Source: Octopus vulgaris (lineage: Eukaryota). From it: a stretch of 64,000 bases of DNA. Each line of letters opens with the position of its first letter. The first letter of the stretch is position 1. The stretch is taken from contig OX597818.1 of NCBI GenBank assembly GCA_951406725.2, positions 35,526,001-35,590,000 of the forward strand, given 5' to 3'. The position numbers and the translations under genes are program-made. Shown piece by piece: positions 13,979-57,814 of this stretch. The notes beneath the pieces were generated by a model. It did not search any database. It saw only the letters and a program-made list of their open reading frames with translations, and was not told where the DNA came from.

Positions 13979-14244
13979 AACAGTTGGAGCGTGGAAGGTG
14001 TTTATAAGCCATTTAAGAAACACACAAAAACCGTTTGATGCACTTCAACATTTAAATATAATTTGCCAAAATATTTTCGTGGCTTTGAGATCGCAACCTG
14101 TTCACCGACAAAATTCTGCGAACAGGCCACGGTCTCAAAGCGACGAAAATGTTTTGACAAATTATATTTAAATGTTGAAGTGAATCTAACGGTTTTTGTG
14201 TGTTTCTCAAATGGCTTATAAACACCTTCCATGCTGCAATTGTT
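13979..14244. repeat. ~265 bp fold-back inverted duplication with a hammerhead-like motif on each arm
   Basis: tggaaggtgtttataagccattt... is mirrored by ...aaatggcttataaacaccttcca; ~12 nt spacer near 14106-14117; right arm runs on ~55 bp to (TA)n. Confidence 0.92.
14062..14112 (-). ncRNA. Hammerhead-like motif with G3-C8 core variant
   Basis: Minus strand TTTGTCG GTGAACA gGTTGC gatctcaaa GCCAC GAAA ATAT T T TGGCAAA: 7-bp helix I (two wobbles), core GUGAACA, palindromic helix III AATATT. The mirrored copy at 14118-14161 (+) supplies GCGAC and TGACAAA. Confidence 0.62.
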
Positions 14245-20109: not shown

Positions 20110-20927
20110 TCTGTGAATATATTGCCGTCCAAATTATGCAAAAATGAAAATAACACTGACATCTCACTTTACTAGATATATTTACCAAAATTACATAAAA
20201 ATATATTGAAATACTGTGAGTAAATTTATTCAATAAAATCGCTATTAGCTTCAGCCACGGCTTCCAGACGACTTCGGAACCTCCTGCAACTCTTTTGGAC
20301 GGCCACTTTGATTAAATTGGTGAATGCTGCCATAATTCTTGCCTTCAGTTCATCTTTGGCGTTACATGGAGTTTTGTTGGTCTCCACTGCGCTCCACATG
20401 TAATAATCAAAGGGGTTGCAGTTTGGGGAGTTAGGTGGCCAGATGTTGGGAGTGATGTAGTTGCAGAAATTGTCAGACAGCCATGACAGGGTTCTCCTGC
20501 TTGTGTGACAGGGTGCAGAATCCTGTCGCCAGACGTAGGGTCTTCTAGCAGCCACCCTCTTGACCCAGGGCAGCATGGGTCAAGAGGGTGGCATAACGTC
20601 ATCATCGCTTGGTGATGAATCGAAACACGATGATGTTGAGCGGGTGTTTGATTTTTATGACTCTCGGTACATGTCCTCAGATTGACATTCAAGCACTCTG
20701 AAATGTCCGTATTGGAGCTTCCGGCGCGAATGCCAAGCGGTAGAGCATGTCATTTCCAAATTTCTGGCTGAGTGAATTGCATTATAGTATTGTTTTTTTT
20801 CTGTCATAGACGGTGCTCAAGTGAACCTACTAAAGTGTGTAGTGGACAGAATAACAATAACAAAAGAAAAAATGCGCATGCGCAGAGTTGAAAGTATAAA
20901 TGGCGACAATTTACCCATCGCACACTG
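20110..20927 (-). mobile_element. maT-type DNA transposon relic
   Basis: Terminus cagtgtgcgatgggtaaattgtcgccattt (minus) abuts TA at 20928-20929; the other end is degenerate near 20110. Confidence 0.7.
20226..20782 (-). pseudogene. Internally deleted Tc1/mariner-superfamily transposase, DD37D (maT) type
   Basis: QDSAPCH...WPPNSPNCNPFDY with 37 residues between the last two catalytic D; N-terminal HTH-like IRAGSSNTDISECLNVNLRT; stops and deletions present. Confidence 0.88.
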
Positions 20928-33250: not shown

Positions 33251-33283
33251 CCCTCTGATGAGGGTGCTGCCGAAAGCGTTAGC
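33251..33283 (+). ncRNA. Candidate minimal hammerhead motif
   Basis: ccCT CTGATGA GG gtgctg CC GAAA GCG TT AG: intact core, but helices I and II are only 2 bp. Confidence 0.4.
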
Positions 33284-40155: not shown

Positions 40156-40496
40156 GTGTCTCTAAAAGAAATGGAGAAACTCTCAAAATACAAAGACCTG
40201 GAAATAGAGGTAACTAGAATGTGGAATCTGAAAACAGAAACAATTCCTATCATAGTAGGTGCATTAGGCATGATAAAAAAATATTCAGACAAATACATAA
40301 CAAAAACACCAGGACTTACAAACACATACAACATACAGAAAATTGCACTACTAGGCACTGCACACATCCTACGCAGAACACTTTCCATACAATAACCATC
40401 AGAGCATCACAACAAATCACAGCACATACCCAAGGCACACAGAGCTGCGCTCGGTAGTGAAGTGAAAGCACCATATAAAAAATATACTACTGAAAA
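40155..40496 (+). mobile_element. 5'-truncated R4/Dong non-LTR retrotransposon inside (AAT)n
   Basis: Uninterrupted ORF end KEMEKLSKYKDLEIEVTRMWNLKTETIPIIVGALG...QKIALLGTAHILRRTL* (C-terminus of the restriction-like endonuclease) plus ~100 bp 3' UTR; (AAT)n on both sides (39950-40154, 40497-40786). Confidence 0.9.
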
Positions 40497-43875: not shown

Positions 43876-44194
43876 TGTACTGAAACCGTAAAGTATACTA
43901 GCCATCTCAATATGGCTAACCACTAGGGGTGGGTGTTACTGCAGCTTTTTAGCCCCAGGAGATCATCGTCTCCAGCTGGCTTTAGACACAATTTCTGTGC
44001 CCTTATATTTGCAAAGGGAAGTCCCTTTTCAAATATCATAAGGGCGCAGAAATTGTGTCTAAAGCCAGCTGGAGACGATGATCTCCTGGGGCTAAAAAGC
44101 TGCAGTAACACCCACCCCTAGTGGTTAGCCATATTGAGATGGCTAGTATACTTTACGGTTTCAGTACATCTCGTTCAGAGATTTATTATTGCTT
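43876..44194. mobile_element. Near-perfect 293 bp palindrome (43876-44168) plus 26 bp tail; PLE-pLTR-like family also at 53.8/54.1 kb
   Basis: Arms almost identical (the mirrored 62-aa ORFs in the track reflect this); 2-nt loop at 44020-44021; 12-bp duplication tgtactgaaacc at 43876 and 44195. Confidence 0.9.
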
Positions 44195-45988: not shown

Positions 45989-47224
45989 CCTGAAATTCAT
46001 TATACTTATACAAGAATAACACACATACACACACACACGCGCGTATATATAAATATATACATTATCCCTAATGATGAAGATTTTATCAATTATATTATTC
46101 CTATCCTTTTGTACCAATTGGAAAATACTCTTACAAAGTGCTACACGAGTTATCATTTCATTCAGGTAAGGAGACCGGTATCTTAGAAAACTTAATGGGA
46201 TTAGAAAGTCTATTCTTCCTTAGCCCATTGGTAAACATGAGGTACTAATACTAATATAAGAAAAGTTTTTAACAGAAAAGTCTTAATTTCAATGTCATCG
46301 TGTCTCTAATTTTACACATTTGAAGGGAAATTATGTCAAAAGTTTCATGAATTTCTTTTTTGTTCTTTCTTAGATAAGAATAATATAACAATTTAAAACA
46401 TCTAAGGGATACTTGTAAAAGAATTAATGAAGTTACCGATCCATTTGAAAGAGTTAAATTTTATATATGGATTATTTTAGCTCGTTACATGCCTGGCCAA
46501 GTTTCCCCAAGTGTAAAATTGACCGTACTTTTGTTAACATGAGAGTATTTAGAAGACCAGACTATATTTTAATCCTATACTTATCACTAAAATTTTTAAA
46601 ATACTTGTTAATTTCAAAAGAAAAAAAAAACGCAAAAAAATTCACGAATCTTGAAATAATTTTTCGTGAATGCCTTCAGATATTTACATTTAAATCCGGA
46701 TCTCATCAACTCAAGATATAACAGAATTTTTGAAGTAGACACTCTTTAATCATAAAAAAAAGATATATACTATATTAAATTAATAAAATTTGATACCGAA
46801 TATAAGAGATAGTTTTTGATTATTCCTGAGAGACAGAGAAAGAGAGAGAGAAAATTTAAAAAAAAGCTTTCTAATAAAGCTTTGCTGTGTTGCACAGAAT
46901 AGTCAATAAAAAGATGAACATATTGTTCCACAAAGGTAATTGAAACTTCTTCAACGATAGGGCTTGTAGAAAATACCGCAGGTACACTCAAACTGGGGTT
47001 TTTATATTGATATAAATATGGATGATACTGAACTAGGCCCAATAGCAAAAGAAACTGATGCAATACAATACCAAGAAGAGTTTGCACTCGCCCAACAACA
47101 AAAAAGAACACATAATGCCGTACACACCTTAGCAACACGGAGGTGTAGCAGCTGATTCAGTAGAAATTTGTCTGAAACTATCAAATGTTGAATAACAACA
47201 ACAATAATAATGATGATAAACCAA

Positions 47225-51188: not shown

Positions 51189-51333
51189 CATATACATATA
51201 TATATATATATATACATGCATACATATATACATATATATATATATATGTATATATGTGTGTGTGTGTTTTAATTAAATGAGACAACAAAACCAAGGCTGT
51301 AGAATTTATAGGACATTTATAAAGAGAAAGGTA

Positions 51334-51372
51334 GTGTTACAGCTGTTTCGGGGATACCCCTTCATCAGAGAC
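51334..51372 (-). ncRNA. Minimal type I hammerhead motif (same family as the 56.0-56.2 kb palindrome)
   Basis: Minus GTCT CTGATGA a GGGG tat CCCC GAAA CAGCTG TA ACAC: intact core, palindromic helix III ACAGCTGT, one mismatch in helix I. Confidence 0.8.
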
Positions 51373-51551
51373 GATATGATAGAGTTAACTAGAGGAAAAT
51401 AGTAGAGTTCAATAGTTATCTTGGAGCTGCAACTGTAACATCCTATATATATTTTACTTTTATTTTTATTTTTTCTCTTATTTCTCTTTATACTTCCTAT
51501 ATCTATCCTTTTCCAAAATAACTCATTTTATTTAACATATACATGCTCACA

Positions 51552-53602: not shown

Positions 53603-53738
53603 ATTAAAATCTTCGTTAAGGCCAAGTTACTTCAGGTTATCGACTCTTTCATTTTCTTAGGAAGGTCTGTACTAGATGATGAAAATCTGGACACAGAAAT
53701 ACATCAGCGAATTCAAAGGGTAGCAAATATTCTAAAAC
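53603..53738 (+). mobile_element. RTE RT-thumb fragment in opposite orientation
   Basis: IKIFVKAKLLQVIDSFIFLGRSVLDDENLDTEIHQRIQRVANI matches the V..F.YLGS......D.EI..RI..A motif. Confidence 0.7.
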
Positions 53739-53786
53739 CTTTCACAGCCTTGGATTTTTATCTCATTCTGAAAATTATATATATAT

Positions 53787-54200
53787 AAGCAATAATAAAT
53801 TTCTGAGCGAGGTATAAACAGTAGCTGCACGACACCGTGAAGTATATTTGCTACCTACATGTGGCTAACCCTTAAGGGTTGATGCTACTGTAGCTTGTAG
53901 CCCCAGGAAGACATCACCTTCACATGGCTATTGACACACTTTCTGTGCCCTATCACTATTTGCAAAGAGAAATCATCTTTCCCATCTGCAGCCTGACGTG
54001 ATACATGCGGACCCGAGTTTCTGAGTATTGACACATCATTAGCGTGTAATGGGAAGTGGTTCTCAATGCAAATATTTATATATACTTTTTCCAGTGACGA
54101 AAAGTCACTGATCTCGAAAAAGTGGAAACAAGCAATAATAAATCTCTGAGCGAGGTATAAACAGTAGCTGCACGACTTCGTGAAGTATATTTGCCACCTA
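53787..54200 (-). mobile_element. Partial tandem of a PLE-pLTR-like repeat with a degenerate hammerhead at 54007-54045
   Basis: aagcaataataaat.tctgagcgaggtataaacagtagctgcacgac occurs at ~53787 and ~54130; body homologous to the 43.9 kb palindrome; minus ACG CTAATGA TGTGT caat ACTCA GAAA CTCGGG TC CGC. Confidence 0.72.
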
Positions 54201-56018: not shown

Positions 56019-56236
56019 GACAGAATGAGATAACTAATCCAAGGCTGTGAGGAGTTTTGAGGACATTTATAATGAAATAGTCTCACAGTTACTTCTAGGA
56101 TATTATGGATATCCCTTCATCAGAGACGCTGTGAGAAAAGGGATATCTATAATATCCCAGAAACAGCTGTATGACTATTTCATTATAAATTACCTGAAAA
56201 CTCCTCACAGCCTTGGATTTGTTATCTCATTCTGTC
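56019..56236. repeat. 218 bp fold-back with hammerhead relics on both arms (56080-56127 minus; 56140-56175 plus)
   Basis: Left arm minus GTCT CTGATGA aGGGATAT ccata ATATCCTa GAAG TAACTG TG AGAC; right arm GGGATAT ctata ATATCCCa GAAA CAGCTG TA TGAC. Confidence 0.85.
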
Positions 56237-56901: not shown

Positions 56902-57289
56902 GTATATATATACATATAATTTGAATGGAGGCAATACGAACGGAAAACTAGAGGAACCTGACCTATTATCCAATAGAATATTCAGTATATATGTGTACTT
57001 TCTTCGACATTAATAAATAAATATAAAGTTCGAAATAATATTAGTATTAAAACAATACAAGCATATAAACATATAAATATTTAATATTTAAAAACACGCA
57101 ACTATTTAAAAATACGTAGGCATTTAAAAAATATATAAACACATAAATAGATACATAAATAAATATAAATGTTACCACTTAAAATCTAGCTTGTTTCTGA
57201 GTATTGTTAATGTTAAAAATCTTTATATAAAATAGTATAATTTAAATATATATATATATATGTATGTATATATATATATATATATATAT

Positions 57290-57711
57290 AAAAAACAATT
57301 CAAAAATAGAAAATTCTAAAATAATTTTATAGTGAACATTTCAGTACCGGTTTCGGCCATTTTGAGACCTTTTCAACTGTAACGATTAAATAATTAAATT
57401 TAGAAAAATTACAAGAAAAGTTTTTTTAAAAGAATATTTCTATAGTAGTGTTCAGATTTAAGTGGCATTCTGCCTTTCTGCCACAACGACCTCCGACACA
57501 CAAGTGCAAACAAGGGAGTCAGAGAAAGGCAGAATGCCACTTAAATCTGAACACTACTATAGAAATATTCTTTTAAAAAAACTTTTCTTCTAATTTTTCT
57601 AAATTTAATTATTTAATCGTTACAGTTGAAAAGGTCTCAAAATGACCGAACCGGTACTGAAATGTTCACTATAAAATTATTTTAGCATTTTCTATTTTTG
57701 ACTTGTTTTTT
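57290..57711. repeat. ~420 bp fold-back (190 bp arms, 43 nt spacer) between (TA)n tracts
   Basis: Arms ending ...gtggcattctgcctttct and starting agaaaggcagaatgccac... are near-exact reverse complements. Confidence 0.93.
57342..57379 (-). ncRNA. Minimal hammerhead motif with U3-A8 core variant
   Basis: Minus CAG TTGAAAA GGTC tcaaaat GGCC GAAA CCGG TA CTG; mirror at 57623-57659 (+) has GGTC/GACC but GAA (one A lost). Confidence 0.75.
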
Positions 57712-57746
57712 CATATATATCAACTCGTGTGTTCCTTTTCACCCTT

Positions 57747-57814
<68 letters not shown>

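Follow-up and report, generated by a model that had tools for sequence, protein, structure and literature searches.

The closest described relatives of the motif considered here are the minimal hammerheads of Penelope-like elements (PLEs). Cervera and de la Pena (2014) reported the U3-A8 state of the core in PLE hammerheads, with about 1,300 matches in S. mansoni, and described opposite-strand pairs 100-700 bp apart, weak cutting as dimers, and one truncated PLE whose 5' end bears another hammerhead in opposite orientation (PMC4209133). Of the 56 motifs listed in that paper, two are U3-A8 (with G17 and U17), one is U3-G8 and none is G3-C8; the six with A17 are all C3-G8. PLE hammerheads often come after the end of an intron, which in the D. 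virilis PLE maps to helix I, and the consensus given in the same paper has a U-rich 5' flank.

In PLE insertions, an inverted 5'-truncated copy is described as lying beside the 5' end; one of the ends has a tail of 30-40 bp, and microsatellites serve as targets. In the Hydra clade the targets are (TA)n and the hammerhead lies near the 3' end, and Penelope-13_HM has such an inverted copy, with one hammerhead per strand (PMC8557442). PLEs make up 6.83% of the genome in an annotation of O. vulgaris (PMC13282606). The hammerheads of these elements cut poorly, and in one in vitro system insertion did not require cutting. The hammerhead of the Anolis PLE (PAc) cut only with protein present, and insertion in vitro was unaffected by hammerhead mutations (PMC11167929).

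Layout of the locus and its motifs

The window, a stretch of 64,000 nucleotides of Octopus vulgaris (contig OX597818.1, positions 35,526,001 to 35,590,000), is AT-rich animal DNA with abundant microsatellites. The locus lies near its end (Table 1). It is probably the 3' end of a 5'-truncated PLE, or of a non-autonomous derivative, with an inherited U3-A8 hammerhead whose potential for cutting would be confined to the source elements.

Table 1. Features of the palindrome and of other hammerhead-like sites, in window coordinates
Feature	Position	Strand	Remarks
Palindrome	57290-57711		two inverted arms of ~190 bp and a 43-bp spacer; (TA)n on each side
Left arm	57290-57479	-	read as inverted duplicate of the 3' part of the element, joined on where the 5' end is truncated; tail-less
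Spacer (43 bp)	57480-57522	+	read as 5'-most surviving part of the truncated element; high depth in 4/4 runs
Right arm	57523-57711	+	read as the element's 3' part in sense orientation
Extension (34 bp)	57712-57745	+	behind the right arm only; compatible with a 30-40-bp PLE tail
(TA)n target microsatellite, left	57246-57290
(TA)n target microsatellite, right	57746-57813
U-rich tract ending in CAG	57580-57625	+	directly before U3; resembles a 3' splice site
Left hammerhead	57342-57379	-	minimal type I, U3-A8, complete GAAA
Left helix I strands	57379-57377 (CAG), 57344-57342 (CUG)	-
Left core	U3 57376, A8 57371, A9 57370, G12 57354	-
Left cut site	U16.1 57346, A17 57345	-	after CCGG
Left helix II			GGUC/GGCC, one G-U (57357), 7-nt loop
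Right hammerhead copy	57623-57659	+	GAA instead of GAAA (one A deleted)
Right core and helix I end	U3 57626, A8 57631, A17 57656, CUG to 57659	+
Right helix II			GGUC/GACC, the family form; followed by GAA, CCGG, U
C3-G8 cores	51368, 33255	-, +	with helix II and GAAA
Relative of the 51368 site	56123	-	C3-G8
G3-C8 motif	G3 at 14105	-	seen once a helix II mismatch is allowed; inside fold-back 13979-14244

The two arms differ by four substitutions and one 1-base deletion in about 190 columns, a fifth mismatch being the inner boundary column. With so few differences the duplication is recent or homogenised. Two of the five differences fall within the 38-nt hammerhead motif. A sequence-only reading of the window had drawn a U3-A8 hammerhead on each arm, and both were found where it placed them, the right one with GAA. 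The core letters UUGAAAA are common to the two arms. The left core satisfies Y3-U4-G5-A6-N7-R8-A9, G12-A13-A14-A15.1 and U16.1-H17 and has a Watson-Crick 3-8 pair; the right core fails by the missing A, and the right-arm copy is probably dead. No row of the family contigs described below has a deletion at the left-arm places that match this loss. The shared U3 and A8 had also been put forward as an argument against independent decay. Since the arms descend from one copy, this sharing proves nothing; it is one duplication and counts as one observation.

The fold of the motif is modest and not significant (z = -0.44 on the left and -0.87 on the right). The Rfam model Hammerhead_HH9 gives 16.2 bits to the left motif (E 0.31) and 11.9 bits to the right (E 7.6), below the gathering score of 52, and no hammerhead is among the Rfam matches listed for the whole window (150 of 391). 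The C3-G8 site at 51368 has no Rfam hammerhead match either, which indicates that the models of clan CL00010 are insensitive to such minimal motifs; U3-A8 cores are missed by CUGANGA descriptors as well as by Rfam. A strict descriptor matches only 57376 in the window. It finds a match with a Watson-Crick 3-8 state in 7 of 40 approximate dinucleotide shuffles, and the U3-A8 state gave two matches in the 40. A looser descriptor, which allows a helix II mismatch and was tuned after its matches were seen, finds three sites, 57376 (U3-A8), 14105 (G3-C8) and 46816 (U3-U8); at least one Watson-Crick-state match occurs in 25 of 200 shuffles and at least two in 2 of 200. The case for a hammerhead is carried by the family data and the context, not by the fold alone.

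Outside the window, the full motif had no match in metagenomes. A 19-base pattern that leaves positions 3 and 8 free hit 118 metagenome loci. A viral scan gave two loci, which were coding-like and were rejected. In a blastn of all 120 loci the matches were at most 40 bases long, with E of 0.018 or more, and the metagenome loci were rejected as chance.

The tract at 57580-57625 is a putative 3' splice site, judged by its letters. Were splicing to use it as an acceptor, the upstream exon would supply the 5' strand of helix I. No splice-like joint was seen in the contigs of run X17, which is RNA only by guess.

Family copies, folding and predicted cleavage

Contigs of four public runs (three studies; from 24 candidates) were matched to 57292-57522 at 80% likeness and a 3% variant share. 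This reference covers 231 of about 456 bases, namely the left arm and the spacer, and the extension at 57712-57745 lies outside it; contigs less than 80% alike were excluded, and rare variants drop out of contigs. The runs yielded 2499, 1403, 941 and 22 fitting contigs. Such thousands indicate a highly repeated family, the summed contig depth being no copy number. At the 3% share, 13 of the 231 places are variable, and no core base, positions 3 and 8 included, is among them. U3-A8 is thus the state of the family. Random bases at positions 3 and 8 in other copies, which the sequence-only reading had named as evidence against itself, were not seen above 3% in the family contigs, and its claim that U3-A8 is not a local decay product stands for all four runs. 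The lack of such variants in the core is not proof of selection, because the chance of zero variable places among 13 core places is about 0.5 (hand calculation).

The base at 57357 is private to the left arm, with more than 99% of the family depth differing from it in all four runs. Besides this one, the only variable places of the motif are 57369 and 57355, which are each other's partners, 10.1 and 11.1. A subfamily, evident from loose ends behind 57361 (16, 20, 12 and 1 contigs) and from one X17 contig, has A10.1-U11.1 and a shorter loop II, with UUGAAAA unchanged. Its helix II is AGUC/GACU, and the change reads as compensatory in the contig letters. C11.1 and G12 make up a CpG, where the pair-keeping change takes 8.8, 14.6, 4.8 and 30% of the depth, and the change that removes G12 has no row (below 3%). 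Four plus-strand A-to-G differences at 57388-57396 reach 3% only in X17, mostly in one contig of depth 6; they could reflect the editing of dsRNA made by palindromes of this kind, or a divergent copy.

Helices I and II are both present in the minimum-energy fold, with a probability of 0.91-0.98 for the 10.1-11.1 pair. The stretch from A15.1 to U16.1, ACCGGU, is self-complementary. Within a monomer the A15.1-U16.1 pair of helix III has a probability below 0.0001, and forcing it costs about 5 kcal/mol. Between two strands, the 6-bp helix III has a probability of 0.90 and the best fold is a double hammerhead, computed to lie 7.5 kcal/mol below two monomers. The proposal, made from the sequence, that the helix III loop is too short for a monomer and that cleavage would depend on a dimer holds in these computed folds; it is also the published model.

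A pair between U3 and A17 is predicted to extend helix I, with a probability of 0.73 in the monomer and 0.84 in the dimer. To open it would take 2.2 kcal/mol per dimer, or about 1.1 per motif, tertiary energy being left out. The pair is possibly a built-in lock at the cut site, and its predicted stability argues for slow cutting. C3-G17, a pair of the same geometry, has been proposed as a trap that impairs minimal hammerheads, and G17 ribozymes with tertiary contacts still cut (PMC3884650).

An RNA read through the whole palindrome is computed to form a hairpin of -272 or -284 kcal/mol, in which helix II has a probability of ~1e-17. Since such an RNA folds into a long sense/antisense hairpin, the arms cannot be mutual dimer partners. 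The low probability of helix II in it, together with the loss of a core A from the right arm, makes cleavage of 57290-57711 itself unlikely. Cutting, if any, would belong to source elements with two repeats in the same orientation.

The same retroelement might instead carry a hammerhead that is dead throughout the family, C3U and G8A having been fixed in a master copy in which U3 locks A17. The motif would then spread as a passenger or serve as a protein-binding hairpin. As a whole this is an unlikely account. It gains from the predicted U3-A17 pairing (probabilities of 0.73 and 0.84, 2.2 kcal/mol per dimer) and from the published table, where the U3-A8 rows carry G17 and U17 and six of six A17 rows are C3-G8 (56 motifs, PMC4209133), but G17 ribozymes with tertiary contacts do cut (PMC3884650). 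Evidence on the 3-8 pair points in both directions: in one type III hammerhead scanned in depth, only a G-C swap rescued it (PMC9901934), whereas U3-A8 preserves the tertiary Watson-Crick pair and has been described as natural and active in vitro (PMC3088659). Also in favour of this account, PAc hammerhead mutants leave insertion in vitro intact (PMC11167929) and Naiads spread without canonical hammerheads (PMC8557442). The family contigs, however, speak against a dead motif: the A10.1-U11.1 subfamily points to selection on helix II alongside U3-A8, and the pair-keeping CpG change takes 5-30% of the depth against less than 3% for the one that removes G12.

Nature and origin of the element

The assignment to the PLEs is drawn from the layout and not from a protein. 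A 5'-truncated copy, an inverted duplicate and a (TA)n site match the PLE pattern, and the one-sided 34-bp extension may be its tail. From the end of the right-arm motif to the right (TA)n tract there are 86 bases, which places the hammerhead near the 3' end. The extension at 57712-57745 has no second copy within the 64-kb window. No reverse transcriptase or GIY-YIG gene was found in this copy, truncated to ~270 bp, and two frames of the spacer and arm gave no Pfam family. A 37-aa frame matched only two repeat proteins among 1.84 billion proteins. Pfam on 16 chosen frames of the window gave one weak DUF match.

The contigs bear on how the palindrome arose. Through a joint of 57479 to 57522 on opposite strands, 16, 9, 7 and 1 contigs connect the spacer, as its reverse complement, with one arm, and upstream of 57482 the family continues with other sequence in 20, 13, 12 and 2 contigs. 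In all four runs the contigs mark the spacer as family sequence and not a loop of host DNA. The contig depth dips at the fold-back junction, and no piece crosses 57479/57480 among the 32 listed of 4930. This linear continuation on both sides of the junction means that the palindrome is not the repeated unit, and that the window copy is a 5'-truncated unit with an attached inverted duplicate.

We infer the fold-back mechanism and any cleavage in the following form. The truncated 3' end of a highly repeated PLE, or of a non-autonomous derivative, would have inserted into a (TA)n tract, and at insertion an inverted copy of its own 3' sequence would have been added to the truncated 5' end, giving the palindrome. 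U3-A8 would be an inherited family trait of the PLE hammerhead. Transcripts of the source elements would carry two hammerheads in the same orientation, whose ACCGGU segments pair to build helix III. These dimers may cut after GUA, weakly and probably aided by the protein that the element encodes, and the U3-A17 pairing should lower the rate further. The insertion at 57290-57711 would be a by-product that does not itself cut.

If the palindrome were instead a MITE, a fold-back DNA element whose terminal inverted repeats measure 190 bp, and the hammerhead shape were chance, it would also have long, nearly perfect arms, a short spacer and TA-rich surroundings. The frames searched hold no protein gene, and Watson-Crick-state matches turn up in 7 of 40 shuffles with the strict descriptor and in 25 of 200 with the looser one. 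A MITE is nevertheless very improbable, for the contigs lead from the spacer into a single arm and carry on upstream with other sequence, the depth dips at the junction with none of the 32 listed pieces (of 4930) crossing it, the extension is one-sided and the helix II change is compensatory. About as improbable is the idea that the palindrome is a functional unit, either with its arms forming the dimer or with a divergent promoter in the spacer that makes two trans-pairing hammerhead RNAs: the two motifs do face away from the centre and co-fold in silico as a double hammerhead (-26.5 kcal/mol), but a single RNA would hold one sense motif and its antisense, the antisense made first, in the hairpin of -272 or -284 kcal/mol, and the right arm is without one core A, two of the five arm differences lying in the motif.

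Other elements share the window. A young inverted repeat of 131 bp (99%) at 43876-44168, with a diverged single relative at 53787-53974, has no hammerhead that could be seen. The frame at 20226-20579 resembles a piece of a mariner-type transposase and that at 40156-40395 the end of a non-LTR endonuclease; Pfam matched neither.

Other 3-8 pair states and described hammerheads

The window holds a second hammerhead repeat family, in the C3-G8 state, with a palindromic helix III and A17. It makes the same kind of fold-back at 56019-56236 and has single decayed copies at 51276-51379 and 53725-53770. Decayed hammerhead-like cores, CUGAUGA and CUGAGGA, lie at 33255 (+) and 43597 (-) and have no second copy in the window. 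Strict descriptor scans of the window gave no G3-C8 motif. Single matches of type II G3-C8 at 59040 (+; one of 180 cores) and of type I U3-U8 at 46816 (+) are probably chance.

The motif at 14105 lies in a fold-back whose arms are 86% alike. It has a 7-bp helix I (two G-U), GUGAACA, an extra base after A9, a palindromic helix III and U17. Read by eye, the left arm forms four of the five pairs of helix II and the right arm three, the mismatched pairs not being the same ones; G3 and C8 are present in both arms, and the right arm has a C at position 4. With z of 0.31 and 0.55 the fold does not stand out from chance, Rfam gives no hammerhead match at 13979-14244, and neither copy folds as a hammerhead in silico. 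By its letters, the motif is a candidate decayed G3-C8 hammerhead-like sequence and the best lead in the window. Its loop II shares a 9-mer, GGUCUCAAA, with the U3-A8 element. The G3-C8 pattern had no viral match and only short matches in two prokaryotic contigs.

The sequence-only reading had counted three of the four Watson-Crick states of the 3-8 pair within 64 kb. For the motifs this is probably right, with 14105 (-) as the G3-C8 site, which is maybe not the one meant. The three states do not amount to covariation: they sit in separate repeat families, blastn of the U3-A8 element against the window's other hammerhead sites gave no match, and there is thus no covariation within an alignment. 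A wider claim, tentative and on balance rather unlikely, is that a single animal genome contains hammerhead families of PLE type in three 3-8 states, among them a natural G3-C8 one (13979-14244), and a U3-A8/A17 lock opened only by a dimer partner or by the protein of the element. If it were true, the abundant family would directly test whether PLEs need hammerhead cleavage to spread. A family as abundant as this, with U3-A8 and A17, is a natural experiment on the role of the hammerhead in PLEs.

Compared with the minimal hammerheads of PLEs (PMC4209133), the octopus motif is likewise of type I, with short helices I and II, a palindromic helix III that needs a dimer and a U-rich 5' flank, and it shares the core letters UUGAAAA with the PLE-linked hammerhead S. 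mansoni(4). The opposite-strand motifs are about 250 bp apart, within the 100-700 bp of the described pairs. It differs in having no extra base between 9 and 10.1, a 4-bp helix II, the palindrome ACCGGU and, in contrast to the G17 and U17 of the published U3-A8 rows, an A17 able to pair with U3. As the U3-A8 PLE hammerheads, the opposite-strand pairs and the dimer dependence were all published in 2014, the novelty implied by the sequence-only reading does not hold.

The Hydra-clade PLEs, Penelope-13_HM and Hydra-1_Obim among them, share with the octopus element the (TA)n targets, a hammerhead about 100 nt from the 3' end, a longer palindromic helix III, frequent A17, an inverted 5'-truncated copy and maybe a one-sided tail. 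Their hammerhead table differs, with 34 of 34 rows C3-G8, and sequence words of the U3-A8 element were not found in the supplement (PMC8557442). Perreault et al. (2011) described the covariation of C3-G8 to U3-A8 as natural and compatible with activity, and the section on these variants does not link them to PLE fold-backs (PMC3088659). Within the literature searched, mostly non-subscription, no paper on an octopus U3-A8 family or on a natural animal G3-C8 hammerhead was found, and the cephalopod hammerhead literature, under the same limit, gave no report of a U3-A8 family; Lunse et al. (2017) may list them. The non-LTR retrozymes are also non-coding, have a type I hammerhead and are proposed PLE derivatives, but they are head-to-tail tandem repeats, as against the single inverted pair here (bioRxiv 10.64898/2026.07.22.740005). 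Set beside these systems the locus contributes little that is new, since its swapped core, its inverted pair and the dimer model are all in the literature; what merits work at the bench is the possible U3-A17 lock and the G3-C8 motif of the same window.
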